Shown here: in pieces, positions 6,001 through 25,402 of the stretch
Position numbering within the stretch: the first letter of the stretch is position 1
How the letters are laid out: each line of letters begins with the position of its first letter
NCBI GenBank assembly: GCA_964016885.1
Contig: OZ024743.1
Location: forward strand, 90,148,001-90,212,000
DNA length: 64,000 nt
Origin: Eledone cirrhosa
Lineage: Eukaryota
Direction: 5' to 3'
Notes under the pieces: model-generated
What the model was told of the DNA's origin: nothing
The model's database searches: none
Seen by the model: the letters and a program-made list of their open reading frames with translations, nothing else
Made by a program: the position numbers and the translations under genes

Positions 6001-8706
6001 CCTTCACACCACTTATGACCTTACAATTGCCAGCCAAACCTCTAACCACTCCACCCTTCACACCACTTATGACCTTACAATTGCCAGCTAAACACTCTAA
6101 CCACTTCACCCTTCACACCACTTATGACCTTACAATTGCCAGCCAAACACTCTAACCACTCCACCATTCACACCACTTATGACCTTACAATTGCCAGCTA
6201 AACACTCTAACCACTTCACCCTTCACACCACTTATGACCTTACAATTGCCAGCCAAACACTCTAACCACTCCACCATTCACACAACTTATGACCTTACAA
6301 TTGCCAGCTAAACACTCTAACCACTTCACCCTTCACACCACTCATGACCTTACAATTGCCAGCTAAACACTCTAACCATTGCACCCTTCACACCACTCAT
6401 GACCTTACAATTGCCAGCCAAACCTCTAACCACTCCACCCTTTACACCACTCATGACCTTACAATTGCCAGCTAAACACTCTAACCACTTCACCCTTCAC
6501 ACCACTCATGACCATACAATTGCCAGCCAAACCTCTAACCACTCCACCCTTCACACCACTCATTACCTTACAATTGCCAGCTAAACACTCTAACCATTCC
6601 ACCCTTCACACCACTCATGACCTTACAATTGCCAGCCAAACACTCTAACCACTCCACCCTTCACACCACTTATGACCTTACAATTGCCAGCCAAACCTCT
6701 AACCACTCCACCCTTTACACCACTCATGACCTTACAATTGCCAGCTAAACACTCTAACCACTCCACCCTTCACACCACTTATGACCTTACAATTGCCAGC
6801 TAAACACTCTAACCATTCCACCCTTCACACCACTTATGACCTTACAATTGCCAGCTAAACACTCTAACCACTCCACCCTTCACACCACTTATGACCTTAC
6901 AATTGCCAGCTAAACACTCTAACCACTCCATCCTTCACACCACTTATGATCTTACAATTGCCAGCTAAACACTCTAACCACTCTAGCCTTCACACCACTC
7001 ATGACCTTACAATTGCCAGCCAAACACTCTAACCACTCCATCCTTCACACCACTTATGACCTTACAATTGCAGGCTAAACACTCTAACCACTCCACCCTT
7101 CAGACCACTTATGACCTTACAATTGCCAGCTAAACACTCTAACCACTCCACCCTTCACACCACTTATGACCTTACAATTGCCAGCCAAACACTCTAACCA
7201 CTCCACCCTTCACACCACTTATGACCTTAAAATTGCCAGCTAAACAATCTAACCACTCCACCCTTCACACCACTCATGACCTTACAATTGCCAGCTAAAC
7301 ACTCTAACCACTCCACCCTTCACACCACTCATGACCTTACAATTGCCAGCTAAACACTCTAACCACTCCACTCTTCACACCACTCATGACCTTACAATTG
7401 CCAGCTAAACACTCTAACCACTCCACTCTTCACACCACTCATGACCTTACAATTGCCAGCCAAACACTCTAACCACTCCACCCTTCACACCACTTATGAC
7501 CTGACAATTGCCAGCCAAACACTCTAACCACTCCACCCTTCACACCACTCATGACCTGACAATTGCCAGCCAAACACTCTAACCACTCCACCCTTCACAC
7601 CACTCATGACCTTACAATTGCCAGCTAAACACTCTAACCACTCCACCCTTCACACCACTTATGACCTTACAATTGCCAGCCAAACACTCTAACCACTCCA
7701 CCCTTCACACCACTTATGACCTTACAATTGCAGGCTAAACACTCTAACCACTCCACCCTTCACACCACTCATGACCTTACAATTGCCAGCTAAACACTCT
7801 AACCACTCCACCCTTCACACCACTTATGACCTTACAATTGCCAGCTAAACACTCTAACCACTCCACCCTTCACACCACTTATGACCTTACAATTGCCAGC
7901 TAAACACTCTAACCACTCCACCCTTCACACCACTTATGACCTTACAATTGCCAGCTAAACACTCTAACCACTCCTCCCTTCACACCACTTATGACCTGAC
8001 AATTGCCAGCCAAACACTCTAACCCCTCCACCCTTCACACCACTTATGACCTTACAATTGCCAGCTAAACACTCTAACCACTCTACCCTTCACACCACTT
8101 ATGACCTTACAATTGCCAGCTAAACACTCTAACCACTCCACCCTTCACACCACTCATGACCTTACAATTGCCAGCTAAACACTCTAACCACTCCACCCTT
8201 CACACCACTCATGACCTTACAATTGCCAGCCAAACCTCTAACCACTCCACCCTTCACACCACTCATGACCTTACAATTGCCAGCTAAACACTCTAACCAC
8301 TCCACTCTTCACACCACTCATGACCTTACAATTGCCAGCCAAACACTCTAACCACTCCACTCTTCACACCACTCATGACCTTACAATTGCCAGCTAAACA
8401 CTCTAACCACTCCACCCTTCACACCACTCATGACCTTACAATTGCAGGCTAAACACTCTAACCACTCCACCCTTCACACCACTTATGACCTGACAATTGC
8501 CAGCCAAACACTCTAACCACTCCACCCTTCACACCACTTATGACCTTACAATTGCCAGCTAAACACTCTAACCACTCCACCTTTCACACCACTCATGACC
8601 TTACAATTGCCAGCCAAACACTCTAGCCACTCCACCCTTCACACCACTTATGACCTTACAATTGCCAGCCAAACACTCTAACCACTCTACCCTTCACACC
8701 ACTTAT
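1..8706. repeat. 55-bp minisatellite, ~158 tandem units (GCCAGCYAAACACTCTAACCACTCCACCCTTCACACCACTYATGACCTTACAATT), runs off the 5' window edge
   Basis: Direct 55-nt periodicity with recurrent SNP and 1-nt deletion variants. Confidence 0.98.
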
Positions 8707-8799
8707 GGTTTATGGTTTGTTATTTACTTAAAAGATCCATCAACCATCTTCCCAATGGAGAACAACCATTTCTTACAATCCCTGCGATACACAATGTCT

Positions 8800-11700
8800 T
8801 CTTGTCTTTCTGTCAATCAGTCAGTCTGTCTGTCTGTCTTTCAGTCTGTCTATCTTCCTGTCTATCAGCTTGTCAGACTGTCTTTCAGTCTGTCTCTCTC
8901 TCTATCTTCCTGTCTCTCTCTCTTAGTCAATCTGTCTATTTGCCTTCCTTTCTTTCTATCCATCACTCTCTCTATCTGTCTGTCAGTCTGTCAGTCTGTA
9001 TGTTATTCTTTCTATCTGTCAGTCTCTCTGTTTGGCAGTATCTCAGTCTCTCAGTCTCTCAGTCTCTCAGTCTGTCCATCTGTCAGTCTCTCAGTCTCTC
9101 AGTCTCTCAGTCTCTCAGTCTCTCTGTTTCTCAGTCTGTCTGTCTCTCAGTCTCTCAGTCTGTCCATCTGTCTGTCTCTCAGTCTCTCTGTCTCTCTGTC
9201 TCTCCGTCTCTCAGTCTCTCAGTCTCTCTGTCTCTCTGTCTCTCTGTCTCTCAATCTCTTAGTCTGTCAGTCTGTCCATCTGTCAGTCTCTCTGTCTCTC
9301 TGTCTCTCAGTCTCTCTGTCTCTCTGTCTCTCAATCTCTCAGTCTCTCAGTCTCTCAGTCTCTCTGTTTCTCAATCTCTCAGTCTCTCAGTCTCTCAGTC
9401 TGTCAGTCTGTCCATCTGTCAGTCTCTCAGTCTCGCCATCTCTCAGTCTCTCCGTCTCTCAGTCTCTCTGTCTCTCTGACTCTCTGTCTCTCAATCTCTC
9501 AGTCTGTCAGTCTGTCCATCTGTCAGTCTCTCTGTCTCTCTGTCTCTCTGTCTCTCTGTCACACAATCTCTCAGTCTCTCTGTCTCTCAATCTCTCCGTC
9601 TCTCTGTCTCTCTGTCTCTCAATCTCTCAGTCTCTCAGTCTCTCAATCTCTCAGTTTCTCAGTCTCTCAATCTCTCAGTCTCTCAGTCTGTCCATCTGTC
9701 AGTCTCTCAGTCTCTCCGTCTCTCAGTCTCTCAGTCTCTCAGTCTCTCTGTCTCTCAATCTCTCAGTCTGTCAGTCTGTCCATCTGTCAGTCTCTCTGTC
9801 TCTCAGTCTCTCAGTCTCTCTGTCTCTCTATCTCTCTGTCTCTCAATCTCTCAGTCTCTCAGTCTCTCTGTCTCTCAATCTCTCAGTCTCTCAGTCTCTC
9901 AGTCTCTCAGTCTCTCAGTCTGTCAGTCTGTCCATCTGTCAGTCTCTCAGTCTCTCCGTCTCTCAGTCTCTCAGTCTCTCAGTCTCTCAGTCTCTCTGTC
10001 TCTCAATCTCTCAGTCTCTCAGTCTCTCAGTCTCTCAGTCTCTCAATCTCTCTGTCTCTCTGTCTCTCTGTCTCTCAATCTCTCAGTCTGTCAGTCTGTC
10101 CATCTGTCAGTCTCTCTGTCTCTCAGTCTCTCAGTCTCTCTGTCTCTCTGTCTCTCTGTCTCTCAATCTCTCAGTCTCTCAGTCTCTCTGTCTCTCTGTC
10201 TCTCAATCTCTCAGTCTCTCAGTCTGTCAGTCTGTCCATCTGTCAGTCTCTCTGTCTCTGTCTCTGTCTCTCCGTCTCTCAGTCTCTCAGTCTCTCTGTC
10301 TCTCTGTCTCTCTGTCTCTCAATCTCTCAGTCTGTCAGTCTGTCCATCTGTCAGTCTCTCTGTCTCTCTGTCTCTCTGTCTCTCAATCTCTTAGTCTCTC
10401 TGTCTCTCAATCTCTCCGTCTTTCTGTCTCTCTGTCTCTCAATCTCTCAGTCTCTCAGCCTCTCAGTCTCTCAATCTCTCAGTTTCTCAGTCTCTCAGTG
10501 TCTCAGTCTCTCAGTCTGTCCATCTGTCAGTCTCTCAGTCTCTCCGTCTCTCAGTCTCTCAGTCTCTCAGTCTCTCTGTCTCTCAATCTCTCAGTCTGTC
10601 AGCCTGTCCATCTGTCAGTCTCTCTGTCTCTCAGTCTCTCAGTCTCTCTGTCTCTCTGTCTCTCTGTCTCTCAATCTCTCAGTCTCTCAGTCTCTCACTC
10701 TCTCTGTCTCTCTGTCTCTCAATCTCTCAGTCTCTCTGTCTCTCAGTCTCTCAGTCTGTCAGTCTGTCCATCTGTCAGTCTCTCAGTCTCTCCGTCTCTC
10801 TGTCTCTCAGTCTCTCAGTCTCTCAGTCTCTCTGTCTCTCTGTCTCTCAATCTCTCAGTCTCTCAGTCTCTCAGTCTCTCAGTCTGTCAGTCTGTCCATC
10901 TGTCAGTCTCTCAGTCTCTCAGTCTCTCCGTCTCTCAGTCTCTCAGTCTCTCTGTCTCTCTGTCTCTCTGTCTCTCAATCTCTCAGTCTGTCAGTCTGTC
11001 CATCTGTCAGTCTCTCTGTCTCTCAGTCTCTCTGTCTCTCTGTCTCTCTGTCTCTCAATCTCTCAGTCTCTCAGTCTCTCTGTCTCTCTGTCTCTCAATC
11101 TCTCAGTCTCTCAGTCTCTCAGTCTCTCAGTCTCTCCGTCTCTCAGTCTCTCAGTCTCTCTGTCTCTCTGTCTCTCAATCTTTCAGTCTGTCAGTCTGTC
11201 CATCTGTCAGTCTCTCTGTCTCTCTGTCTCTCTGTCTCTCTGTCTCTCAATCTCTCAGTCTCTCTGTCTCTCAATCTCTCCGTCTCTCTGTCTCTCTGTC
11301 TCTCAATCTCTCAGTCTCTCAGTCTCTCAGTCTCTCAATCTCTCTGTCTCTCAGTCTCTCAGTCTCTCTGTCTCTGTCTCTCTGTCCCTCTGTCCCTCTG
11401 TCTCTCGGTCTCTCAATCTCTCAGTCTCTCAGTCTCTCAGTCTCTCAGTTTCTCAGTCTCTCAGTCTCTCAGTCTCTCAGTCTCTCTGTCTCTCAATCTC
11501 TCAGTCTGTCCATCTGTCAGTCTCTCTGTCTCTCTGTCTCTCAGTCTCTCAGTCTCTCTGTCTCTGTCTCTCTGTCCCTCTGTCCCTCTGTCCCTCTGTC
11601 TCTCGGTCTCTCAGTCTCTCTGTCTCTCAGTCTCTCAGTCTCTCTGTCTCTCAGTCTCTCAGTCTCTCAGTCTCTCTGTCTCTCAGTCTGTCTGTCTGTC

Positions 11701-11941
11701 TGTCCGTCTGTCCATCTGTCCGTCTGTCTGTATATCAGTCTGTCTGTCTCTCAGTCTCTCAGTCTCTCAGTCTGTCCATCTGTCAGTCTCTCTGTCTCTC
11801 AGTCTGTCCGTCTGTCTGTCTATCAGTCTGTCTCTCTGTCAGTCTGTCCATCTGTCCGTCTGTCCATCTGTCCGTCTGTCTGTCTATAAGTCTGTCTGTC
11901 TCTCAGTCTGTCCGTCTGTCCATCTGTCCGTCTGTCTGTCT
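8800..11941. repeat. Compound TCTG/TCTCTCAG/TCTGTCCA microsatellite array upstream of Tx1 copy 1
   Basis: 4- and 8-nt pyrimidine-rich units; source of the spurious poly-SL ORFs. Confidence 0.95.
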
Positions 11942-12116
11942 GAGGATAGTAGACGTGTGTCATATCGCTCTGTGATTTGGATTTTTACCTGCTATTTTTG
12001 TGAGTGGAATTTTTTGAATTCTTTTGTATAATTAACTGTAACCCCTAGTCTGGGACTCTAGACGTCGGGTAAATATATTTTCACCCCTTTTGGGGTGAAA
12101 AATAAATATTTCAGAA

Positions 12117-13871
12117 ATGTTTATCGATATCGTTGATAACGATATCGTCGAAAACGATATCGCCATATTGGAAGCGAACGCCACGCCGACCAAAAAAACA
12201 AGCGGGAAAGAGGGAACAACAGTTCAAACTGTTGAACAACCCCTCCTCTCCAATGAAAAAAAGAATTTCAATTCAAATGAAAAAATTAATTTTCAAGAGA
12301 AAAATAACACCACAAATAAGGAAACCAACAACATTACAACAACAAACAAAGACAAAATTTCTTTTGCCCAAACACTCAGGAGAGCCACGGAATACAAAGC
12401 CATTGACATCACGAACGCCAAGGAAAATTTGCTAGAGGCTAGAAAATACGTATCTTTTGGGGAGGATGGTTCTTTTACGATCAACTCCCCAGAAGAAGTG
12501 CGTGAACAGATTTACAAGAATACCGTAAGCTACAGAACCATAACCAACGAAACGAGAAAGCCAGCGCAATTGACCGAAAGTCAAATCGAGCTGGTTCTGA
12601 AAGAAATTAAAAATGACATACTCTTTATTCAAAGAGGAAAGCTGTATGCCAGCATTATGGTCCGAATGAAGGACGAAATGCTGGCTCAGAAATATTCGGT
12701 GGCACCTATAGTGTCACCACAATACACCTTCTTCCCCACATATAAAGGAAGAAGAACACAAAGGATAAGAATGTGGAGCCCTACGCCAGAAATTAACATC
12801 TGGTCCGTCCTAACAGGATTTACCGACCTAGATAAGGACATACTAATTTCAGCAGGGGAGTCCACCAGTGGACTGTTCGGAGGGAAAAGTCTGGAGGTTC
12901 TCTTACAGATGACACCTGAGAGAATCTCCGGAATACCCGACCGAGTGCTACTGGATGGGCGAACCTACATAAATATCACAGTGGAAGGCAGGAGACCCTC
13001 ATGTTACCACTGCGCTGGCAGAGGTCACCTGAGGACGGCCTGCCCTCTACTAACAACTAAAAAATCACTGCTACAAACACCACAACAACAACAAAAACAA
13101 CCAGCACCACCATCACAAAAACAACAAAATACACTACCATCTCCACCAGAACAACAAAAACCAACAACACCACCACCACAACAACAACAACAACAACAAC
13201 ATCAACAACAGCTCAAGAAAACAACCCAAAACACGGTCCCACCCAGCCCCACCCCACAGAACACAAATACAAAAACAGTTCATACACAACCCGGAGATAT
13301 ACCCCTCCCCTCCAATACGGAAGAGGAGCTCATATCGTCGGAAGACGAGGGGGCTCCCTTCCAAAAAGTGAAAAGAAAAAAACGTACACACACCACAACA
13401 ACAAAAATAACCCCACCTGACAACACAACACAGACAATAAAACGCAAACTCACTCAACAACAACAAGCAAAAACAAACACAACACAAAAACTCTACACAT
13501 ACATAAACAAAAACAATGAAAACCTAACTTTAAAAATAGAAACCAACCCTTCGATACAAACCGAAGGGCCGATTTTCGTAACGGCAATGGGGCTCCCTAA
13601 CCTGAAAATGGTGAAAATCCCACTTGACATTTTTAAAACTTTAAAAGACATGTACCCTGAGGACGTGGGCCCACCCTGCACCAGGCCACTCAACCGCGTC
13701 CTCCTGAAAGGTTTTCCCCTCCCCTCCTCAAACACCCACACAACTCCAAAGATCCCAACCCCTCCACACACCAATACCCCCACACCACCACAAACCACCA
13801 CCCCACCCATCAACCCCGCCACCAGCCCCATGGAAACTGAGCGACCCGAACCCCGGGACGCAGAGAGGTAA
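12117..13871 (+). CDS. Tx1-like ORF1 nucleic-acid-binding protein, 584 aa
   Basis: CCHC knuckle CYHCAGRGHLRTAC; Q/T/P-rich C-terminus; lies 23 nt upstream of ORF2. Confidence 0.9.
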   Translation: MFIDIVDNDIVENDIAILEANATPTKKTSGKEGTTVQTVEQPLLSNEKKNFNSNEKINFQEKNNTTNKETNNITTTNKDKISFAQTLRRATEYKAIDITNAKENLLEARKYVSFGEDGSFTINSPEEVREQIYKNTVSYRTITNETRKPAQLTESQIELVLKEIKNDILFIQRGKLYASIMVRMKDEMLAQKYSVAPIVSPQYTFFPTYKGRRTQRIRMWSPTPEINIWSVLTGFTDLDKDILISAGESTSGLFGGKSLEVLLQMTPERISGIPDRVLLDGRTYINITVEGRRPSCYHCAGRGHLRTACPLLTTKKSLLQTPQQQQKQPAPPSQKQQNTLPSPPEQQKPTTPPPQQQQQQQHQQQLKKTTQNTVPPSPTPQNTNTKTVHTQPGDIPLPSNTEEELISSEDEGAPFQKVKRKKRTHTTTTKITPPDNTTQTIKRKLTQQQQAKTNTTQKLYTYINKNNENLTLKIETNPSIQTEGPIFVTAMGLPNLKMVKIPLDIFKTLKDMYPEDVGPPCTRPLNRVLLKGFPLPSSNTHTTPKIPTPPHTNTPTPPQTTTPPINPATSPMETERPEPRDAER

Positions 13872-13894
13872 GTGCCTCTTTCTTTGCCACCAAC

Positions 13895-16800
13895 ATGGCT
13901 GTCTTAAGAGTGGGTTGTCTAAATGCGCGTGGCCTGGGCTCACCTTGGAAGCAAGCTAAACTTCTAAGTGACCTCAGGTCACAATGTGTAAATGTGATGG
14001 TTATTTGCGAGGCCCGGATCAGCAGCATGCGACAGCTAACCCCCACCTTTGATGACTTTGAGATGCACGCATCTCTCTGTCAGCCCGGAGGTGGGGGTGG
14101 GGTTGTCGTTCTGCTGCAAAAACATCTGGGTCTCGCTACACGGACGGTACACTTGGACCCGGAGGGTCGACTCGTGGTTCTGGACCTTGGCAATGGTGAA
14201 GGCGAAGCTTTTAGGCTTGTCGCCGTATACGCCCCTTTTGGGGCAATGCGGTCGGACTTCTTCCATCGTCTGGAGACTTTTCTAGGGACGTCCCACTCCT
14301 TGCTTTTAGTGGGGGACTGGAATGGTATCCTAGATGCACGTTGGGACTATGTAGGGGCATGTCCCGATAGAGGGGGGTGTAACAGCCTTAAGGGGTTAAT
14401 CGGCCGATTCGACCTGGCCGATAGATACCGACTAGATTTTCCGACTGTACCAACCTGGACCTGGTCAAATAACAGTGGTCAATCTAGATCGTACCTAGAT
14501 AGGTTCTTAGTTAGAATTAAGGATAGGGACTTTTTAAGTTGTCCAGAAATGCTCATGGTGGGCTATTCAGACCACAAGTTAGTGACCTGCGTAGTCCACC
14601 TTGATAGAACGCATAGGCAGGGGCCCGGTTACTGGAAGCTCAACTTGTCCTTACCGGCAAGTAGAGCTTACAGGGACCAGATTAGAACCTTAGTTAAGGA
14701 GCAGTTGACGGGCGCCATCGTCAACAACAGGTGGTGGGGCTCTCTAAAAAGAGAGATTAGAGTAGTTTCAATAGGAGTTAGTAAGGAGTTAGCCTCAGAT
14801 AGAAATAGGAAGGAAAGGGAGTTGGTAGTTAATGTTGAAGAGGCAATGAGAAGCGGCAACGTGGCCAGAGTGCAAGCGTCGAGAACGGTCTTGAACCAGT
14901 TCTTCGACGCGAAACACGAAGGCTGCGTTGTCCGAAGCAAAATACGTGCTCTGGGAAACGAGGGGACCAAAGCTGTTAGCTGGGCCCGCGTGACAGAAGC
15001 GAAAAGTGGGATTAAATCCACTATCCGGTCTTTGCGAGACCAGGATGGACGGCTGATCCTTGAACCTAAGCAAATGTGCGAGGCCTTTCAAAGGCACTTT
15101 GCCCAATTGTTCGGGAGGGGCGGGGAGCCGGTTGGAGATGTGGATTTCGGTCCATACCTCGACGGCCTGCCGCGTCTTTCAGACGGGGAGGCAAGGTCCT
15201 GCGACGGGCCGATCTCAGCTGCTGAAATAGGGGACGTGCTGAGCCTATGCGGCAAACGCAAATCTCCAGGACTCGATGGTCTGCCCTAAGAAACTATATA
15301 TTAATATGCCGGACTTGTTCCCCGATCTCCTCGAGGCGGTCTACTGCAACTGGCAACAGAACGGGAGAATTCCCTGTTCTGTGACCAAGGGCGTAGTCTC
15401 GCTAGTGAGGAAGGACGAGAACAAGGGGGATGACATTAGTAATTTTAGGCCCATAACTCTGCTAAATGCAGAGTTAAAGATTTTGGCGAAGGTGTTAGCG
15501 AAGAGGTTGGCGCTTGTCGTGGGGGGCCTGGTGGGAGATGCGCAGACATGCGCTATCCCGTCCAGGTCCATCCACGACAACCTCCACCTCATGCGATACA
15601 TCATAGAGAGGGTTGGGAACGAACCCGGCTTTGCTGGGGCCCTGATAAATTTAGATCAGTCTAAAGCGTTCGATAGGGTGGACCATGGTTACCTGGATGC
15701 GGTGCTAGCGGCGGCTGGGTTCGGACCCGTTTTCAGGGGCTGGATCACTGCCATGCACAGCAGCCGCATCTGCTCTAGAATCAAGGTGAACGGCTACCTT
15801 TCGGAGCCGTTCGAAATCACCCGCTCCATCCGACAGGGGTGCCCTCTCTCCTCCCTTCTGTATGTGTTGACTCTCGAGCCATTACTGCGGAAGTTGGAGT
15901 TGTTGCAGGGCATTCCTTTGGAACCGGGATTGCGCAAAGCGGTGTCGGCCTACGCCGATGACGTAACAGTAATGGTGTCGACCGCCTCGGAAATCGAGGC
16001 AATCGGCACCTTACTAGAGGAGTACGAAAGGTTGACAGGGGCTAAGCTGAACCGGGACAAGTCAGTCGCTTTGCAACTCGGCGAGTGGAGGGGCAAAGCG
16101 ATGTCGTGAGACGGTATCGTCGGACGGTGGACGGAGGGCCCGGTGAAGTTGCTTGGGGTCTGGTTCGGACCGGACCTCCAGGTGGAGAAAAACTGGGGTG
16201 AGGTGACGAATAGGGTGTTTGCACTGACCCAGAAGTGGGCCGAGTGCAAACTATCCCTAAAAGGTCGGGCGGAGGTGGCGAACGCTTACGTAGCGTCCGT
16301 CATCTATTACCGCTTGACTGTCGTGCCTTGCCCGGGTGAGATCCTCGCCAAAATGGAGCGCGCCCTCTTTTATTTCCTTTGGAAGAAGAGGTCTCCTCTA
16401 GTGAGGAGATCCATCTGCTGTCAACACCCTTTGAAAGGAGGGCTGGGGATGCCGTGGCTAAAAATGCGTAAACACGCATTGAGGCTAAGGCACCTCCACG
16501 TATTCCTCACCGGTCAACCGGTGTGGGCCCCGTTTGTGAGGCGAGCCTTCCCGAGGCTCGTCTCGCTCACCGAGCTGCAGTCCTGGGTGAAGCAAAGACC
16601 GAAAAAACTGGGCGACTGGCACACCGAGTGTGCCCAGGCGCTCACGGCTCTCTGGCAGGCGGACCCGGCTATCGACGGAAACTCCACCTCGTCATTCTAT
16701 AGAGGGCTGGTGGTTAGCGGGTGCGACGACGCCCTCGGAGAAGCACTAGGCATGGAGGAGTTCGAACTGGCCAGTCTATTCGGTAGGACTTTCGGCCCGG

Positions 16801-17333
16801 GACCTATGGACAACTTCCAGAAGTCCTTGGCCTGGCAGTGCTACCGAGGGGCTCTGCCCGTTCGGGATAAGCTCTACAGACACGGGCGCCCGGGTAGGGA
16901 CCCCTCGAAAAAGATCTGTCCCAGATGCGTGCGCGACGAGGAAACCGTCGCGCACGCATTGGTGCACTGCCCGGGCGTTGCCGATCTGTGGGGCTATGTT
17001 GAACAACTGCTGTCACGGGTGGGACCAATTAGGTTGACCACCGAGTCCATTGTAACGATCAAGCCGCCTCCCCCCTTCAGAAATGAAGGAGAGGCGGTAT
17101 TCCTCTGTGTAATAGCCATGGTAAAAGAGGCTATATGGTGGACGCGTCTGAAAGGGCTGAGGTCGGACACCTTTCTCTCCGGCCAACAACTGGTCCTTTT
17201 CTTCCGATACCATTTCGGAAGAAGGATCAGGATGGAGAGAGAGGTGCTCCACTCCAGCAAGTTTTATGAAAGGTGGGTGAAAGTTGCGAGAATGGCCCGT
17301 GTGAATGGGCCTTCTCTCTACCTCAGCCTGTAG
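13895..17333 (+). pseudogene. Tx1-like ORF2 (APE endonuclease-RT-zinc finger) broken by stop + frameshift near 15288 and TGA at 16107-16109
   Basis: Versus copy 2: CCCTAAGAAACT vs CCCTACGAACT, and TGA vs TGC; motifs LNARG, GDWN, SDH, QGCPLS, YADD present. Confidence 0.92.
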
Positions 17334-17557
17334 GTGGAACAGAAAGAGGGGAGCACCCTCTCTTTGTGCTCCCGTGGAGAAGGGTCGCACACTTTTTTTC
17401 GGGGGTGTGTGTGACCCCAAAACGATCCCTCCCTATTGAGGACCTTCTTGTTATTATTTTGTTTGTTATATTTTTCTTACTCGATTTTTATGTAAACTCC
17501 CCCCACCCATGTACATGTCCCTTTCTTTTGTGCCCTAGTGGCAAATAAACAGAAATT

Positions 17558-18898
17558 AGTCTGTCCATCTGTCCGTCTGTCCATCTGTCCGTCTGTCTGT
17601 CTATCAGTCTGTCTGTCTCTCAGTCTGTCTGTCTGTCCCTCTGTCCGTCTGTCTGTCTATCAGTCTGTCCATCTGTCAGTCTGTCCATCTGTCAGTCTCT
17701 CTGTCTCTCTGTCTCTCTGTCTCTCAATCTCTCAGTCTCTCTGTCTCTCAATCTCTCCGTCTTTCTGTCTCTCTGTCTCTCAATCTCTCAGTCTCTCAGT
17801 CTCTCAGTCTCTCAATCTCTCAGTTTCTCAGTCTCTCAGTCTCTCAGTCTCTCAGTCTGTCCATCTGTCAGTCTCTCAGTCTCTCCGTCTCTCAGTCTCT
17901 CAGTCTCTATGTCTCTCAATCTCTCAGTCTGTCAGCCTGTCCATCTGTCAGTCTCTCTGTCTCTCAGTCTCTCAGTCTCTCTGTCTCTCTGTCTCTCTGT
18001 CTCTCAATCTCTCAGTCTCTCAGTCTCTCACTCTCTCTGTCTCTCTGTCTCTCAATCTCTCAGTCTCTCAGTCTCTCAGTCTGTCAGTCTGTCCATCTGT
18101 CAGTCTCTCAGTCTCTCCGTCTCTCAGTCTCTCTGTCTCTCTGTCTCTCTGTCTCTCAATCTTTCAGTCTGTCAGTCTGTCCATCTGTCAGTCTCTCTGT
18201 CTCTCTGTCTCTCTGTCTCTCTGTCTCTCAATCTCTCAGTCTCTCTGTCTCTCAATCTCTCCGTCTCTCTGTCTCTCTGTCTCTCAATCTCTCAGTCTCT
18301 CAGTCTCTCAGTCTCTCAATCTCTCTGTCTCTCAGTCTCTCTGTCTCTGTCTCTCTGTCCCTCTGTCCCTCTGTCTCTCGGTCTCTCAATCTCTCAGTCT
18401 CTCAGTCTCTCAGTCTCTCAGTTTCTCAGTCTCTCAGTCTCTCAGTCTCTCTGTCTCTCAATCTCTCAGTCTGTCCATCTGTCTGTCTCTCTGTCTCTCT
18501 GTCTCTCAGTCTCTCAGTCTCTCTGTCTCTGTCTCTCTGTCCCTCTGTCCCTCTGTCTCTCGGTCTCTCAGTCTCTCAGTCTCTCTGTCTCTCAGTCTCT
18601 CAGTCTCTCAGTCTCTCAGTCTCTCAGTCTCTCAGTCTGTCTGTCTGTCTGTCCGTCTGTCCATCTGTCCGTCTGTCTGTATATCAGTCTGTCTGTCTCT
18701 CAGTCTCTCAGTCTCTCAGTCTGTCCATCTGTCAGTCTCTCTGTCTCTCAGTCTGTCCGTCTGTCTGTCTATCAGTCTGTCTCTCTGTCAGTCTGTCCAT
18801 CTGTCCGTCTGTCCATCTGTCCGTCTGTCTGTCTATAAGTCTGTCTGTCTCTCAGTCTGTCCGTCTGTCCATCTGTCCGTCTGTCTGTCTGTCTGTCT
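17558..18898. repeat. TCTG/TCTCTCAG microsatellite spacer between the two Tx1 copies
   Basis: Same units and the same rare variants as ~10330-11941. Confidence 0.95.
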
Positions 18899-19073
18899 GA
18901 GGATAGTAGACGTGTGTCATATCGCTCTGTGATTTGGATTTTTACCTGCTATTTTTGTGAGTGGAATTTTTTGAATTCTTTTGTATAATTAACTGTAACC
19001 CCTAGTCTGGGACTCTAGACGTCGGGTAAATATATTTTCACCCCTTTTGGGGTGAAAAATAAATATTTCAGAA

Positions 19074-20834
19074 ATGTTTATCGATATCGTTGATAACGAT
19101 ATCGTCGAAAACGATATCGCCATATTGGAAGCGAACGCCACGCCGACCAAAAAAACAAGCGGGAAAGAGGGAACAACAGTTCAAACTGTTGAACAACCCC
19201 TCCTCTCCAATGAAAAAAAGAATTTCAATTCAAATGAAAAAATTAATTTTCAAGAGAAAAATAACACCACAAATAAGGAAACCAACAACATTACAACAAC
19301 AAACAAAGACAAAATTTCTTTTGCCCAAACACTCAGGAGAGCCACGGAATACAAAGCCATTGACATCACGAACGCCAAGGAAAATTTGCTAGAGGCTAGA
19401 AAATACGTATCTTTTGGGGAGGATGGTTCTTTTACGATCAACTCCCCAGAAGAAGTGCGTGAACAGATTTACAAGAATACCGTAAGCTACAGAGCCATAA
19501 CCAACGAAACGAGAAAGCCAGCGCAATTGACCGAAAGTCAAATCGAGCTGGTTCTGAAAGAAATTAAAAATGACATACTCTTTATTCAAAGAGGAAAGCT
19601 GTATGCCAGCATTATGGTCCGAATGAAGGACGAAATGCTGGCTCAGAAATATTCGGTGGCACCTATAGTGTCACCACAATACACCTTCTTCCCCACATAT
19701 AAAGGAAGAAGAACACAAAGGATAAGAATGTGGAGCCCTACGCCAGAAATTAACATCTGGTCCGTCCTAACAGGATTTACCGACCTAGATAAGGACATAC
19801 TAATTTCAGCAGGGGAGTCTACCAGTGGACTGTTCGGGGGGAAAAGTCTGGAGGTTCTCTTACAGATGACACCTGAGAGAATCTCCGGAATACCCGACCG
19901 AGTGCTACTGGATGGGCGAACCTACATAAATATCACAGTGGAAGGCAGGAGACCCTCATGTTACCACTGCGCTGGCAGAGGTCACCTGAGGACGGCCTGC
20001 CCTCTACTAACAACTAAAAAACCACTGCTACAAACACCACAACAACAACAAAAACAACCAGCACCACCATCACAAAAACAACAAAATACACTACCATCTC
20101 CACCAGAACAACAAAAACCAACAACACCACCACCACCACAACAACAACAACAACAACAACATCAACAACAGCTCAAGAAAACAACCCAAAACACGGTCCC
20201 ACCCAGCCCCACCCCACAGAACACAAATACAAAAACAGTTCATACACAACCCGGAGATATACCCCTCCCCTCCAATACGGAAGAGGAGCTCATATCGTCG
20301 GAAGACGAGGGGGCTCCCTTCCAAAAAGTGAAAAGAAAAAAACGTACACACACCACAACAACAAAAATAACCCCACCTGACAACACAACACAGACAATAA
20401 AACGCAAACTCACTCAACAACAACAAGCAAAAACAAACACAACAACACAAAAACTCTACACATACATAAACAAAAACAATGAAAACCTAACTTTAAAAAT
20501 AGAAACCAACCCTTCGATACAAACCGAAGGGCCGATTTTCGTAACGGCAATGGGGCTCCCTAACCTGAAAATGGTGAAAATCCCACTTGACATTTTTAAA
20601 ACTTTAAAAGACATGTACCCTGAGGACGTGGGCCCACCCTGCACCAGGCCACTCAACCGCGTCCTCCTGAAAGGTTTTCCCCTCCCCTCCTCAAACACCC
20701 ACACAACTCCAAAGATCCCAACCCCTCCACACACCAATACCCCCACACCACCACAAACCACCACCCCACCCATCAACCCCGCCACCAGCCCCATGGGAAC
20801 TGAGCGACCCGAACCCCGGGACGCAGAGAGGTAA
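19074..20834 (+). CDS. Tx1-like ORF1 protein, 586 aa
   Basis: CCHC zinc knuckle; near-identical to 12117-13871. Confidence 0.9.
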   Translation: MFIDIVDNDIVENDIAILEANATPTKKTSGKEGTTVQTVEQPLLSNEKKNFNSNEKINFQEKNNTTNKETNNITTTNKDKISFAQTLRRATEYKAIDITNAKENLLEARKYVSFGEDGSFTINSPEEVREQIYKNTVSYRAITNETRKPAQLTESQIELVLKEIKNDILFIQRGKLYASIMVRMKDEMLAQKYSVAPIVSPQYTFFPTYKGRRTQRIRMWSPTPEINIWSVLTGFTDLDKDILISAGESTSGLFGGKSLEVLLQMTPERISGIPDRVLLDGRTYINITVEGRRPSCYHCAGRGHLRTACPLLTTKKPLLQTPQQQQKQPAPPSQKQQNTLPSPPEQQKPTTPPPPQQQQQQQHQQQLKKTTQNTVPPSPTPQNTNTKTVHTQPGDIPLPSNTEEELISSEDEGAPFQKVKRKKRTHTTTTKITPPDNTTQTIKRKLTQQQQAKTNTTTQKLYTYINKNNENLTLKIETNPSIQTEGPIFVTAMGLPNLKMVKIPLDIFKTLKDMYPEDVGPPCTRPLNRVLLKGFPLPSSNTHTTPKIPTPPHTNTPTPPQTTTPPINPATSPMGTERPEPRDAER

Positions 20835-20857
20835 GTGCCTCTTTCTTTGCCACCAAC

Positions 20858-23800
20858 ATGGCTGTCTTAAGAGTGGGTTGTCTAAATGCGCGTGGCCTGG
20901 GCTCACCTTGGAAGCAAGCTAAACTTCTAAGTGACCTCAGGTCACAATGTGTAAATGTGATGGTTATTTGCGAGGCCCGGATCAGCAGCATGCGACAGCT
21001 AACCCCCACCTTTGATGACTTTGAGATGCACGCATCTCTCTGTCAGCCCGGAGGTGGGGGTGGGGTTGTCGTTCTGCTGCAAAAACATCTGGGTCTCGCT
21101 ACACAGACGGTACACTTGGACCCGGAGGGTCGACTCGTGGTTCTGGACCTTGGCAATGGCGAAGGCGAAGCTTTTAGGCTTGTCGCCGTATACGCCCCTT
21201 TTGGGGCAATGCGGTCGGACTTCTTCCATCGTCTGGAGACTTTTCTAGGGACGTCCCGCTCCTTGCTTTTAGTGGGGGACTGGAATGGTATCCTAGATGC
21301 ACGTTGGGACTATGTAGGGGCATGTCCCGATAGAGGGGGGTGTAACAGCCTTAAGGGGTTAATCGGCCGATTCGACCTGGCCGATAGATACCGACTAGAT
21401 TTTCCGACTGTACCAACCTGGACCTGGTCAAATAACAGTGGTCAATCTAGATCGTACCTAGATAGGTTCTTAGTTAGAATTAAGGATAGGGACTTTTTAA
21501 GTTGTCCAGAAATGCTCATGGTGGGCTATTCAGACCACAAGTTAGTGACCTGCGTAGTCCACCTTGATAGAACGCATAGGCAGGGGCCCGGTTACTGGAA
21601 GCTCAACTTGTCCTTACCGGCAAGTAGAGCTTACAGGGACCGGATTAGAACCTTAGTTAAGGAGCAGTTGACGGGCGCCATCGTCAACAACAGGTGGTGG
21701 GGCTCTCTAAAAAGAGAGATTAGAGTAGTTTCAATAGGAGTTAGTAAGGAGTTAGCCTCAGATAGAAATAGGAAGGAAAGGGAGTTGGTAGTTAATGTTG
21801 AAGAGGCAATGAGAAGCGGCAACGTGGCCAGAGTTCAAGCGTCGAGAACGGTCTTGAACCAGTTCTTCGACGCGAAACACGAAGGCTGCGTTGTCCGAAG
21901 CAAAATACGTGCTCTGGGAAACGAGGGGACCAAAGCTGTTAGCTGGGCCCGCGTGACAGAAGCGAAAAGTGGGATTAAATCCACTATCCGGTCTTTGCGA
22001 GACCAGGATGGACGGCTGATCCTTGAACCTAAGCAAATGTGCGAGGCCTTTCAAAGGCACTTTGCCCAATTGTTCGGGAGGGGCGGGGAGCCGGTTGGAG
22101 ATGTGGATTTCGGTCCATACCTCGACGGCCTGCCGCGTCTTTCGGACGGGGAGGCGAGGTCCTGCGACGGGCCGATCTCAGCTGCTGAAATAGGGGACGT
22201 GCTGAGCCTATGCGGCAAACGCAAATCTCCAGGACTCGATGGTCTGCCCTACGAACTATATATTAATATGCCGGACTTGTTCCCCGATCTCCTCGAGGCG
22301 GTCTACTGCAACTGGCAACAGAACGGGAGAATTCCCTGTTCTGTGACCAAGGGCGTAGTCTCGCTAGTGAGGAAGGACGAGAACAAGGGGGATGACATTA
22401 GTAATTTTAGGCCCATAACTCTGCTAAATGCAGAGTTAAAGATTTTGGCGAAGGTGTTAGCGAAGAGGTTGGCGCTTGTCGTGGGGGGCCTGGTGGGAGA
22501 TGCGCAGACATGCGCTATCCCGTCCAGGTCCATCCACGACAACCTCCACCTCATGCGATACATCATAGAGAGGGTTGGGAACGAACCCGGCTTTGCTGGG
22601 GCCCTGATAAATTTAGATCAGTCTAAAGCGTTCGATAGGGTGGACCATGGTTACCTGGATGCGGTGCTAGCGGCGGCTGGGTTCGGACCCGTTTTCAGGG
22701 GCTGGATCACTGCCATGCACAGCAGCCGCATCTGCTCTAGAATCAAGGTGAACGGCTACCTTTCGGAGCCGTTCGAAATCACCCGCTCCATCCGACAGGG
22801 GTGCCCTCTCTCCTCCCTTCTGTATGTATTGACTCTCGAGCCATTACTGCGGAAGTTGGAGTTGTTGCAGGGCATTCCTTTGGAACCGGGATTGCGCAAA
22901 GCGGTGTCGGCCTACGCCGATGACGTAACAGTAATGGTGTCGACCGCCTCGGAAATCGAGGCAATCGGCACCTTACTAGAGGAGTACGAAAGGTTGACAG
23001 GGGCTAAGCTGAACCGGGACAAGTCAGTCGCTTTGCAACTCGGCGAGTGGAGGGGCAAAGCGATGTCGTGCGACGGTATCGTCGGACGGTGGACGGAGGG
23101 CCCGGTGAAGTTGCTTGGGGTCTGGTTCGGACCGGACCTCCAGGTGGAGAAAAACTGGGGTGAGGTGACGAATAGGGTGTTTGCACTGACCCAGAAGTGG
23201 GCCGAGTGCAAACTATCCCTAAAAGGTCGGGCGGAGGTGGCGAACGCTTACATAGCGTCCGTCATCTATTACCGCTTGACTGTCGTGCCTTGCCCGGGTG
23301 AGATCCTCGCCAAAATGGAGCGCGCCCTCTTTTATTTCCTTTGGAAGAAGAGGTCTCCTCTAGTGAGGAGATCCATCTGCTGTCAACACCCTTTGAAAGG
23401 AGGGCTGGGGATGCCGTGGCTAAAAATGCGTAAACACGCATTGAGGCTAAGGCACCTCCACGTATTCCTCACCGGTCAACCGGTGTGGGCCCCGTTTGTG
23501 AGGCGAGCCTTCCCGAGGCTCGTCTCGCTCACCGAGCTGCAGTCCTGGGTGAAGCAAAGACCGAGAAAACTGGGCGACTGGCACACCGAGTGTGCCCAGG
23601 CGCTCACGGCTCTCTGGCAGGCGAACCCGGCTATCGACGGAGACTCCACCTCGTCATTCTATAGAGGGCTGGTGGTTAGCGGGTGCGACGACGCCCTCGG
23701 AGAAGCCCTAGGCATGGAGGAGGACGAACTGGCCAGTCTATTCGGTAGGACTTTCGGCCCGGGACCTATGGACAACTTCCAGAAGTCCTTGGCCTGGCAG

Positions 23801-24295
23801 TGCTACCGAGGGGCTCTGCCCGTTCGGGATAAGCTCTACAGACACGGGCGCCCGGGTAGGGACCCCTCGAAAAAGATCTGTCCCAGATGCGTGCGCGACG
23901 AGGAAACCGTCGCGCACGCATTGGTGCACTGCCCGGGCGTTGCCGATCTGTGGGGCTATGTTGAACAACTGCTGTCACGGGTGGGACCAATTAGGTTGAC
24001 CACCGAGTCCATTGTAACGATCAAGCCGCCTCCCCCCTTCAAAAATGAAGGAGAGGCGGTCTTCCTCTGTGTAATAGCCATGGTAAAAGAGGCTATATGG
24101 TGGACGCGTCTGAAAGGGCTGAGGTCGGACACCTTTCTCTCCGGCCAACAACTGGTCCTTTTCTTCCGATACCATTTCGGAAGAAGGATCAGGATGGAGA
24201 GAGAGGTGCTCCACTCCAGCCAGTTTTATGAAAGGTGGGTGAAAGTTGCGAGAATGGCCCGTGTGAATGGGCCTTCTCTCTACCTCAGCCTGTAG
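20858..24295 (+). CDS. Tx1-like ORF2: APE endonuclease + reverse transcriptase + C-terminal CCHC finger, 1145 aa
   Basis: LNARG, VYAP, GDWN, YLDRF, SDHK (APE); GPGYWKLN; KSPGLDGLP, FRPITLLN, LDQSKAFDRV, QGCPLS, YADD (RT); CPRC...HALVHC. Confidence 0.96.
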   Translation: MAVLRVGCLNARGLGSPWKQAKLLSDLRSQCVNVMVICEARISSMRQLTPTFDDFEMHASLCQPGGGGGVVVLLQKHLGLATQTVHLDPEGRLVVLDLGNGEGEAFRLVAVYAPFGAMRSDFFHRLETFLGTSRSLLLVGDWNGILDARWDYVGACPDRGGCNSLKGLIGRFDLADRYRLDFPTVPTWTWSNNSGQSRSYLDRFLVRIKDRDFLSCPEMLMVGYSDHKLVTCVVHLDRTHRQGPGYWKLNLSLPASRAYRDRIRTLVKEQLTGAIVNNRWWGSLKREIRVVSIGVSKELASDRNRKERELVVNVEEAMRSGNVARVQASRTVLNQFFDAKHEGCVVRSKIRALGNEGTKAVSWARVTEAKSGIKSTIRSLRDQDGRLILEPKQMCEAFQRHFAQLFGRGGEPVGDVDFGPYLDGLPRLSDGEARSCDGPISAAEIGDVLSLCGKRKSPGLDGLPYELYINMPDLFPDLLEAVYCNWQQNGRIPCSVTKGVVSLVRKDENKGDDISNFRPITLLNAELKILAKVLAKRLALVVGGLVGDAQTCAIPSRSIHDNLHLMRYIIERVGNEPGFAGALINLDQSKAFDRVDHGYLDAVLAAAGFGPVFRGWITAMHSSRICSRIKVNGYLSEPFEITRSIRQGCPLSSLLYVLTLEPLLRKLELLQGIPLEPGLRKAVSAYADDVTVMVSTASEIEAIGTLLEEYERLTGAKLNRDKSVALQLGEWRGKAMSCDGIVGRWTEGPVKLLGVWFGPDLQVEKNWGEVTNRVFALTQKWAECKLSLKGRAEVANAYIASVIYYRLTVVPCPGEILAKMERALFYFLWKKRSPLVRRSICCQHPLKGGLGMPWLKMRKHALRLRHLHVFLTGQPVWAPFVRRAFPRLVSLTELQSWVKQRPRKLGDWHTECAQALTALWQANPAIDGDSTSSFYRGLVVSGCDDALGEALGMEEDELASLFGRTFGPGPMDNFQKSLAWQCYRGALPVRDKLYRHGRPGRDPSKKICPRCVRDEETVAHALVHCPGVADLWGYVEQLLSRVGPIRLTTESIVTIKPPPPFKNEGEAVFLCVIAMVKEAIWWTRLKGLRSDTFLSGQQLVLFFRYHFGRRIRMEREVLHSSQFYERWVKVARMARVNGPSLYLSL

Positions 24296-24518
24296 GTGGA
24301 ACAGAAAGGAGGGAGCACCCTCTCTTTGTGCTCCCGTGGAGAAGGGTCGCACACTTTTTTCGGGGTTGTGTGTGACCCCAAAACGATCCCTCCCTATTGA
24401 GGATCTTCTTGTTATTATTTTGTTTGTTATATTTTTCTTACTCGATTTTTATGTAAACTCCCCCCACCCATGTACATGTCCCTTTCTTTTGTGCCCTAGT
24501 GGCAAATAAACAGAAATT

Positions 24519-24695
24519 TGTCTATCAGTCTGTCCGTCTCTCAGTCTGTCCGTCTGTCTGTCTCTCAGTCTGTCCGTCTGTCCATCTGTCCATCTGTCTG
24601 TCTATCAGTCTGTCCGTCTCTCAGTCTGTCCGTCTGTCTGTCTATCAGTCTGTCCGTCTCTGTCTGTCCGTCTGTCTGTCTATCAGTCTGTCTGT
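24519..24695. repeat. TCTG/TCCG microsatellite downstream of Tx1 copy 2
   Basis: Direct repeat reading. Confidence 0.9.
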
Positions 24696-25402
24696 ATAGC
24701 AATGTTTGGTGAAGATATCAACAAAAAATGTATCTTTCCTTCCTTAAAAGCTAAGTGAGGAAACCATTTAACATGTTAACATATCACCACTTGTTGCTCC
24801 TGGGCACACAATTTTATCATTGTATGCGTGGGAAACGAAATTCTCTGGGTGACCTTTGACCCCACAAGAAATTAACATTTAGATGTTGTCACAATATAAC
24901 TATTTATACTTCAAATCTCCAATTTCAAGAAAAAAGGGAACGAGGTCGGTCCCTTTTCCCTTGTATTTTTCAGTTAAACTTAAAACTAAAACAAAATCTT
25001 TCCCTAAACTAAAGAAGGGCTTGTTAAGGGATTTTTTGTGGGGTGGGTGAGGGAATTTATCCATAGACGGAAGCAGAATATCTACCATCATCATCATCAT
25101 AGCCATAATTATTATCATCATCATCATCTCATCATGATTGCTACCATAATCATAAGCATCATCATCATCATTACCATCATTGTCACCAGCATCATCAGTA
25201 TCTTCATCACCACCACCACTACCATCATCATCATCATCCACTGCCACACAGCCAGCCCGATCCGCTGGGTCATCCCCACCAACACCACACCTTGCACACT
25301 GCTGATAATAATGATGATGATGATGATGTTTAAAGCTAATATAGACTAATATAAAAAAGACTAGCTGACTTCCCTGGAAATTTCACAGTTTATTTATTAA
25401 AA

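Follow-up and report, generated by a model that had tools for sequence, protein, structure and literature searches.

Tandem LINE copies in Eledone cirrhosa are separated by a copy of their upstream (GTCT)n-type microsatellite: a local duplication private to one locus

Organization of the locus

The window, i.e. the 64-kb stretch of DNA that was analysed, corresponds to 90.15-90.21 Mb of a 379-Mb contig of Eledone cirrhosa (assembly size, 3.0 Gb). It contains two full-length copies of a LINE, designated E1 and E2, which are arranged head-to-tail and embedded in microsatellite DNA. The parts of the locus are listed in Table 1 together with the designations used in this work.

Table 1. Parts of the locus (positions are those of the 64-kb window).
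Part	Position	Strand	Description
Satellite	1-8707		55-bp satellite
Unique DNA	about 8708-8802		roughly 95 nt
U	8803-11941	+	upstream microsatellite with 8-nt GTCTCTCA / GTCTGTCC unit kinds and a higher-order pattern
A	8803-10332	+	part of U without a duplicate copy
C'	10333-11840	+	microsatellite segment with a copy in the spacer; colinear with 17675-18789, about 99.2%
X	11841-11941	+	101 nt adjoining the E1 5' end; ends ...GTCTGTCTGTCT
E1	11942-17557	+	full-length LINE copy, 5616 bp
S	17558-18898	+	spacer, 1341 nt
X'	17558-17658	+	direct repeat of X adjoining the E1 3' end; resembles a target-site duplication
d16	17659-17674	+	ATCAGTCTGTCCATCT, downstream-array type
C	17675-18789	+	copy of C'; novel junction at its left edge, where 3 nt of microhomology (TCT) are present
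X''	18790-18898	+	copy of X plus one extra GTCTGTCT, 0 mismatches to X; adjoins the E2 5' end
E2	18899-24518	+	full-length LINE copy, 5620 bp
21-nt repeat	24519-24539	+	repeats 17654-17674 at 20/21; possible target-site duplication around [C + X'' + E2]
D	24519-24697 (end approximate)	+	downstream microsatellite built of TGTCTATCAG... units; unique DNA comes next

Identity and coding capacity of the element

ORF1 of E1 is open (584 aa) and ORF2 is interrupted, which leaves ORFs of 464, 277 and 326 aa. E2 carries an ORF1 of 586 aa (19074-20834) and an ORF2 of 1145 aa (20858-24295) with APE, RT and zf-RVT domains. The corresponding Pfam matches in ORF2 were Exo_endo_phos (residues 61-207; E = 1.5e-6), RVT_1 (residues 512-756; E = 7e-27) and zf-RVT (residues 976-1032), the last of these scoring 26.3 bits and thus slightly below its cut-off of 27.5. 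No Pfam match was obtained for ORF1. Human L1 ORF2p is colinear with ORF2 over residues 7-858 (E = 2.7e-50). With a length of 5.6 kb, the element is an APE-type non-LTR retrotransposon (LINE) of the L1 group that resides in (GTCT)n-type microsatellites.

A search for homologues returned 83 matches at E <= 1e-20 and three clusters, none of which was informatively named; the atlas clusters are annotated as 'hypothetical protein'. When the 5' end was searched for a ribozyme, the presence of which would prove co-transcription (Rfam, E <= 1), only a chance match to a CRISPR repeat was found (E = 0.4). The 5' UTR folds stably (z = -3.5), from which nothing specific follows.

The element family in its own genome

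The best 40 matches to the 5' end of the element were each at least 99% identical, and all 38 copies fetched from outside the window were full length and 98.1-99.5% identical to E2. As the sampled copies are 98-99.5% identical, the family appears to be young. A first look gave 3656 candidates for the 3'-terminal 400 nt and 268 for the 5'-terminal 402 nt; these are raw counts, of which 40 of each were scored.

Insertion of the family is target-specific. GTCT or CTCT precedes the element at all 40 of the 5' junctions examined. The form AAATT/TGTC (the slash marks the end of the element) was present at 23 of 30 sampled 3' ends, and /TGTC in any context at 26 of them. The form /AGTC, as found in E1, occurred once among the 30 and was also seen in one other array. 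In clean cases apparent target-site duplications measured from <8 to 16 nt, and repeats of 53-74 nt flank the element at some loci; the exact-prefix scan behind these lengths is confounded by the periodicity of the repeat. A short inherited 5' leader, represented by a junction variant (CTCTGTCT versus GTCTCTCT) that tracks the element tree, was tried and rejected: the six labelled among 29 loci need five changes on the tree and do not cluster.

A head-to-tail neighbour was detected for 21 of the 38 other full-length copies within the 8 kb fetched. The arrays comprise up to at least four copies, some of them identical, and the spacers between copies are 5, 17, 29, 33, 57, 73, 110-111, 122, 133, 169 and 211 nt long.

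E1 and E2 share an upstream haplotype

According to the initial annotation, rare microsatellite variants follow one another in an identical order ahead of each copy. All six marker motifs were found again and their order is conserved: TCCGTCTTTC at 10415 (before E1) and 17756 (before E2), CAGCCTGTCC at 10600 and 17933, CTCACTCTC at 10694 and 18027, CAATCTTTCAG at 11176 and 18157, CCCTCTGTCTCTCGG, which is present twice per side, at 11394 and 11592 and at 18367 and 18549, and CTATAAG at 11884 and 18833. The remaining matches to these motifs in the 64-kb window were two unrelated ones (27275 and 33277).

In a chained alignment, 10331-11941 was placed onto 17672-18890 in seven solid blocks covering 1219 nt with 10 mismatches (99.2% identity). 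About three of these mismatches trace to a single misplaced 8-nt indel, which leaves about seven. The two microsatellite copies are distinguished by six indels of 8, 136, 216, 8, 8 and 16 nt, every one a multiple of 8. As all other diagonals of the same microsatellite reach 83-86% identity, the haplotype match far exceeds what is expected by chance when one repeat is aligned with another. The start of the shared haplotype, previously placed at 17558, had to be moved to about 17675, because colinearity with the upstream array is lacking in the initial 117 nt of the spacer (17558-17674). From there on, the 5' extension of E2 (17675-18898) is colinear with 10333-11941 and thus with DNA that is contiguous with the upstream flank of E1.

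E1 and E2 are sister copies

When 40 full-length copies were placed in a maximum-likelihood tree, E1 paired with E2 at a support of 100/96. Three alignment columns are common to E1 and E2 and occur in none of the other sampled copies, and the 29-mers at two of these three variants are found in E1 and E2 only in the whole assembly. E1 and E2 are therefore exclusive sisters, which means either that one copy gave rise to the other or that a single insertion was ancestral to both. Between them, 29 substitutions in 5616 nt and four indel events were counted. The divergence of the microsatellite equals that of the element (about 0.5-0.8%), so that both were most likely copied together. It is established that the pair, each copy with 1.2 kb of upstream microsatellite, represents a one-off local duplication private to this locus.

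Changes are unevenly distributed between the two units. Among the 40 copies, E1 has 20 private columns and E2 has five; counted as private substitutions the numbers are 19 and 5, and derived changes in the microsatellite amount to three in the upstream unit versus one in the other. Such an asymmetry is predicted neither by a parent-copy relationship nor by a duplication at the DNA level. The private substitutions of E1 include seven G>A versus two C>T changes, with four of the former and one of the latter located at CpG, a pattern that is not decisive for hypermutation of E1 by cDNA editing.

The haplotype is a property of the locus

Diagnostic upstream variants were looked for at unrelated loci, a check that the initial annotation had suggested. 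The first search provided 28 other 5' flanks; one of them, in which the element has a variant 5' end whose location was not found, was left out of the count. The haplotype was absent from all 27 readable flanks, two of which contained a single chance match to the 9-mer CTCACTCTC. Of two haplotype motifs, the one of 30 nt was found four times and the one of 31 nt twice in the 3.0-Gb assembly, in each case inside U and S. When the 5' flanks of 40 copies were compared, no unlinked pair shared more than 33 nt, and the longest shared stretch was pure (GTCT)n. The variant of the microsatellite differs locus by locus. The 1.2-kb haplotype is thus a property of the locus and not of the element.

These data refute the earlier proposal of an element family whose 5' leader, a kilobase of target microsatellite, would rebuild the target and extend an array in the manner of HeT-A/TART at every insertion. 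The local pair and the (GTCT)n that always adjoins the 5' end are all that speaks for it, and with a haplotype confined to one locus, a microsatellite variant of its own at each insertion site, an internal position (90 Mb of the 379-Mb contig) and an endonuclease encoded by the element, this model is virtually untenable.

Structure of the spacer

The 117 nt that separate E1 from the start of the duplicated microsatellite consist of X' and d16. X (11841-11941) and X' (17558-17658) match ungapped at 98 of 101 positions; this is the best register in the array, with the next best reaching 90. Their homology begins at the first base 3' of E1. An exact match of 47 nt is found at 11841, 17558 and 18790 only. 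The 17-mer TGTCTATCAGTCTGTCC at 17654 occurs otherwise three times, namely in the downstream array (24519, 24599 and 24639). As X' is followed by 16 nt of the downstream type, X' plus d16 reads like an unoccupied target site.

The two edges of the duplicated segment differ in character. At the 17674/17675 junction, the 23-mer 17669-17691 has no second occurrence in the microsatellites that were scanned (8800-24700). The 10332/10333 junction looks native, with the 41-mer over 10320-10360 occurring five times in the array. At the far side of E2, 17654-17674 matches 24519-24539 at 20 of 21 positions, but there are 10 local places that match this 21-mer with at most one mismatch.

The 3' junctions of the two copies differ, as had been noted before: E1 ends AGAAATT/AGTCTGTCC and E2 ends AGAAATT/TGTCTATCAG. 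E2 thus has the canonical AAATT/TGTC junction of the family and E1 the minority /AGTC form. The argument that a simple unequal crossover would keep the 3' junction is valid. If D and U had undergone such a crossover, identical 3' flanks of E1 and E2 would be predicted; this history fails to reproduce the anatomy of the locus and was rejected. A breakpoint that is flush with the last base of the element cannot arise by a homology-driven exchange.

Other arrays of the family

Spacers in other arrays reproduce exactly the end of the flank that lies upstream of the first copy, and they start flush at the preceding 3' end. Spacers of this kind measure 122 nt (twice), 133 nt, 73 nt, and 56 and 169 nt in a nested arrangement. 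The array at C2:50.65 Mb contains the two exact 122-nt spacers, both flush at the preceding 3' end. The 3' flank of its last copy differs from the first base on, and a 16-nt identity is located 8 nt away. Homologous exchange should have used this identity. In the array at C2:276.72 Mb, which has the nested 56- and 169-nt spacers, unique DNA begins about 9 nt after the last copy, so that there is no homology for a crossover.

Members of an array are mostly sisters. Support was 100/99 for C2_50 and 98/98 for C2_276, the members of C2_402 are identical, and three of the four copies of C2_103 group together; the members of C2_18 are not sisters, and C1_393 is unresolved in the tree. The tree of C2_50, ((652,658),663), has its 3'-most copy at the base. 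For C2_103, the nesting of the three upstream copies follows their position, (456,(450,444)), and the 3'-most copy (461) falls outside this trio in another clade. The tree order of both arrays suggests growth in the upstream direction, opposite to the direction inferred in the window. A pair of copies located 13.9 kb apart on C19 was uninformative as a control for DNA-level duplicates, both of its flanks being one very large microsatellite.

Origin of the second unit

The order of events in the window would be from E1 to E2, given that the 10332/10333 junction is native and the 17674/17675 junction unique, that the 17 nt preceding the latter are of the downstream type, and that X' is flush with the end of E1. 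The most parsimonious history, we infer, is one local event in which a retro-copy took along about 1.2-1.6 kb of the microsatellite upstream. In detail, E1 would have inserted first into the empty site, with a target duplication of 101 nt. A read-through RNA (or cDNA) of 10333-17557 may then have been primed at the canonical nick GTC/TGTCTATC within the 3' repeat X', and its 5' end may have been joined through the 3-nt microhomology to give [C + X'' + E2]. We assign a probability of about 0.45 to this local 5' transduction, in which the second unit would derive from a transcript that started at least 1.6 kb upstream of E1 and was reverse-transcribed roughly 100 nt downstream of it.

The read-through route is favoured because it explains the whole structure by one event after the insertion of E1. 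The exclusive sister relationship of E1 and E2 and the equal divergence of element and microsatellite also speak for it, and R1 and Tx1-mobilised elements provide precedents for co-transcription with flanking sequence (see below). The separate 3' junctions, with the canonical form in E2, support a retro-copy over an exchange driven by homology, and the flush flank-copy spacers in other arrays carry the same signature. Several observations weaken it. A landing site 117 nt from the source would require the element to re-insert preferentially nearby, a behaviour that LINEs are not known to show. An event at the DNA level is inherently local. A dispersed 5' transduction was found in none of the unlinked pairs (more than 33 nt of flank, 40 copies). 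Parent and copy are expected to have equal numbers of private substitutions, not 19 and 5. X and X' differ at three of 101 positions, with about 0.7 expected from the short branch they share. The 21-nt flanking repeat is weak as a target-site duplication because the motif is recurrent (10 near-matches). Finally, the tree order in two other arrays suggests upstream growth.

It is doubtful whether the arrays of the family in general grow as composites of target microsatellite and element by retrotransposition, not by recombination, with read-through transcripts bringing up to kilobases of upstream target back into the same repeat and the landing pad thereby being regenerated and lengthened.

The strongest rival is a tandem duplication at the DNA level. 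The initial annotation had offered as an alternative a tandem duplication followed by a deletion of about 40 nt at the 3' end of copy 2; the duplication survives as a rival, but the best alignment puts the deletion at 96 nt. In its present form it calls first for a 7.34-kb unit (10333-17674) to be duplicated, as might happen through unequal joining of sister chromatids, and then for deletion of the 101-nt repeat on the E2 side flush with the end of E2. An intermediate allele with E2 followed by AGTCTGTCCATC... would be expected. A duplication of this kind is local by nature, yields sister copies and accounts for the equal divergence of element and microsatellite. The microsatellite is prone to indels, as seen from the six that are multiples of 8, and 96 is likewise a multiple of 8. 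The endonuclease of the element could moreover re-cut the element/flank junction and GTC/TGTC sites, and flush breakpoints would then be less improbable.

Nevertheless, two events are required. Duplication alone leaves one feature unexplained, namely the absence of the first 96 nt of X' after E2, and the deletion must start at the first base past E2 and restore AAATT/TGTC. A direct repeat of at most 1 nt at the ends of the deletion indicates neither slippage nor a homologous event. The 40-nt version also demands an indel of 24 nt and four or more substitutions in 77 nt. Flush junctions are present in other arrays too, including cases in which the 3' flank has no homology to offer. On balance, we consider a DNA-level duplication unlikely.

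Less credible is a microsatellite that had been duplicated beforehand. Here the segment [C-X-d16] would have been present twice, and each unit would have been hit at the homologous (GTCT)n site, the second one by a short hop without carried flank. Large internal duplications are common in microsatellites, and the strict site specificity (40 of 40 5' junctions ending in GTCT or CTCT) fits such a scenario, as do the differing 3' junctions and the 101-nt versus short target duplications. The unequal numbers of private mutations would be explained if E1 were older. However, no other diagonal in the array exceeds 86%, so that an internal duplicate of 99.2% would be unique; its divergence would equal that of the elements by coincidence only; and the variants exclusive to E1 and E2 would still demand a hop from the first copy to the site next door.

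The opposite direction is improbable. In this case E2 would be the founder, and [C' + X + E1], derived from a transcript of spacer plus E2, would have been inserted upstream of it at 10332/17558. Such growth agrees with the tree order in C2_50 and C2_103 and with the exact identity of X and X'', from which X' differs at three positions, and the excess of changes in the E1 unit (19 versus 5 in the element, 3 versus 1 in the microsatellite) could be explained by copying errors. However, about 14 excess changes in 5.6 kb lie far above the error rates of reverse transcriptases. Further, the exact limits of the 117-nt X' plus d16, i.e. the 3' end of E1 and the start of the duplicated segment, are left as coincidences, and its tail belongs to a type that is otherwise seen in the downstream array only.

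An assembly artefact in which two haplotypes of one locus were set in tandem is still less probable: a divergence of 0.5-0.8% with microsatellite length differences looks allelic and the novel junction lies within a microsatellite, where overlaps are error-prone, but the window contains no N, the presumed alleles would still be a 96-nt indel apart flush with the element end, and head-to-tail arrays are common in the family (21 of 38).

If the read-through route is true, the locus is a natural example of a LINE that copied a kilobase of its own target and landed beside its source. It would link co-transcription of the target by site-specific LINEs, 5' transduction and the birth of tandem arrays, and it would imply a local re-insertion bias outside the standard LINE cycle. 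Should the DNA route be the true one, what is seen is a segmental duplication of the ordinary kind within an unstable repeat, and its flush breakpoints would still point to local rearrangement driven by the endonuclease of the element.

Comparison with known systems

In the 5' transduction known from LINE and SVA elements, read-through from an upstream start carries along the upstream flank of the source. The pair described here resembles it in the carried flank that is contiguous upstream, in the separate 3' junction and in the microhomology at the 5' join. It would differ in that 1.2-1.6 kb of the element's own target repeat were carried and in that the copy landed 117 nt away instead of at an unlinked site.

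HeT-A/TART elements form head-to-tail arrays by repeated retrotransposition and are added to chromosome ends. The head-to-tail arrangement is the feature in common with the arrays of the present family. The array in the window is internal (90.1 Mb of a 378.8-Mb contig) and bounded by unique DNA, which also follows its last part, and the element has an endonuclease of the APE type.

Target-specific APE-type LINEs fall into the Tx1 and R1 clades (PMC4640811, PMC4494074). For R1, which is specific for rDNA, transcripts that include upstream 28S sequence have been described, among them ESTs with extensive upstream 28S or from tandem arrays, and truncated R1 copies show microhomologies of 1-5 nt at their 5' junctions (PMC2718515). 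In R1 arrays of Drosophila rDNA a fixed target-site duplication lies between copies, which is thought to reflect re-insertion into this duplication followed by unequal exchange; joining of the top strand by R1 is described as flexible (PMC2718515, bioRxiv 10.1101/158386). The family studied here likewise is a site-specific APE-type LINE that forms head-to-tail arrays with duplicated target between copies. As far as these sources describe R1, however, its spacers are a fixed target duplication of 14 bp (or 33 nt), whereas the spacers found here vary from 5 to 211 nt and reach 1341 nt in the window, so that they lack the constancy of an R1-type double insertion. Further, new R1 copies need not be sisters, in contrast to the array members found here, which are mostly closest relatives with spacers that copy the upstream flank.

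Among Tx1 elements, Kibi targets (TC)n, Koshi (TTC)n and crocodilian families (TTCC)n/(TTTC)n; co-transcription with flanking sequence is discussed for elements mobilised by Tx1, and tandem SINEs mobilised by Tx1 are reported as 'sandwiching a TSD' of 16 bp (PMC4494074). The present family shares with these microsatellite-specific LINEs the APE and RT domains, the L1-group architecture and the strict restriction to one kind of microsatellite; the raw counts of 3'-end and 5'-end candidates suggest that it may also have many 5'-truncated copies. Its (GTCT)n target lies outside those named in PMC4494074, and its target specificity would fit the Tx1 label of the initial annotation. Both R1 arrays and Tx1-mobilised SINE tandems, as documented in these reports, differ from the present case, in which local sisters are separated by a long, variable duplicated flank that is a copy of the upstream array. 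By either route of duplication, the well-defined (GTCT)n-specific LINE, with its many full-length copies and arrays, is good material for studying how such arrays originate.

Target sharing and copy junctions

Diverged relatives of the element (L067, L072, L081, L091 and L095; 79-91% identity) were found in the same microsatellites as young copies of this L1-like LINE family and adjoining them; the target is therefore common to several subfamilies. The sister copies L076 and L077 (C19:1.63-1.65 Mb) are 13.9 kb from each other within a single, very large microsatellite whose unit is 16 nt long. At least 400 nt of their 5' flanks are identical, and the 3' junction is common to both.

The shortest spacers between tandem copies consist of just TGTCT (5 nt) or of 17 nt, as seen at L070 (C2:7.39 Mb) and also at L080 and L085, and perhaps represent a minimal target duplication. 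At three other copies (L061, L068 and L075, the last with a tandem neighbour 211 nt downstream) 53-74 nt of the 5' flank recur in the 3' flank. Between element and match there are 5-8 nt at L061 and L075, but 146 nt at L068. These repeats resemble target duplications but are confounded by local periodicity.

Substitution patterns and 5' UTR folding

Despite being exclusive sisters, the two neighbouring full-length copies in the window, E1 and E2, differ in their private substitutions (19 and 5, respectively), five of the 19 in E1 being CpG transitions. This asymmetry was accounted for by none of the models tested. Among private changes across the 40-copy alignment (E1, E2 and the 38 outside copies L061-L098), sense-strand G>A (76) was more frequent than C>T (46), possibly a trace of cDNA-strand mutation during copying.

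The 5' UTR of E2 matched no family in Rfam. Its predicted fold (-49.4 kcal/mol; z -3.5) is more stable than those of its own shuffles.

Surroundings of the LINE pair

The satellite at the start of the window directly precedes, on the 5' side, the microsatellite upstream of E1, and its + strand is C-rich. The second half of the window is AT-rich.

Features of the window
Feature	Position	Remarks
55-bp satellite	1-8707	158.8 copies, 95% matches
E1	11942-17557	
E2	18899-24518	
E2 5' UTR	18899-19075	
AT-rich segment	39001-42000	stretches at 6-7% G+C
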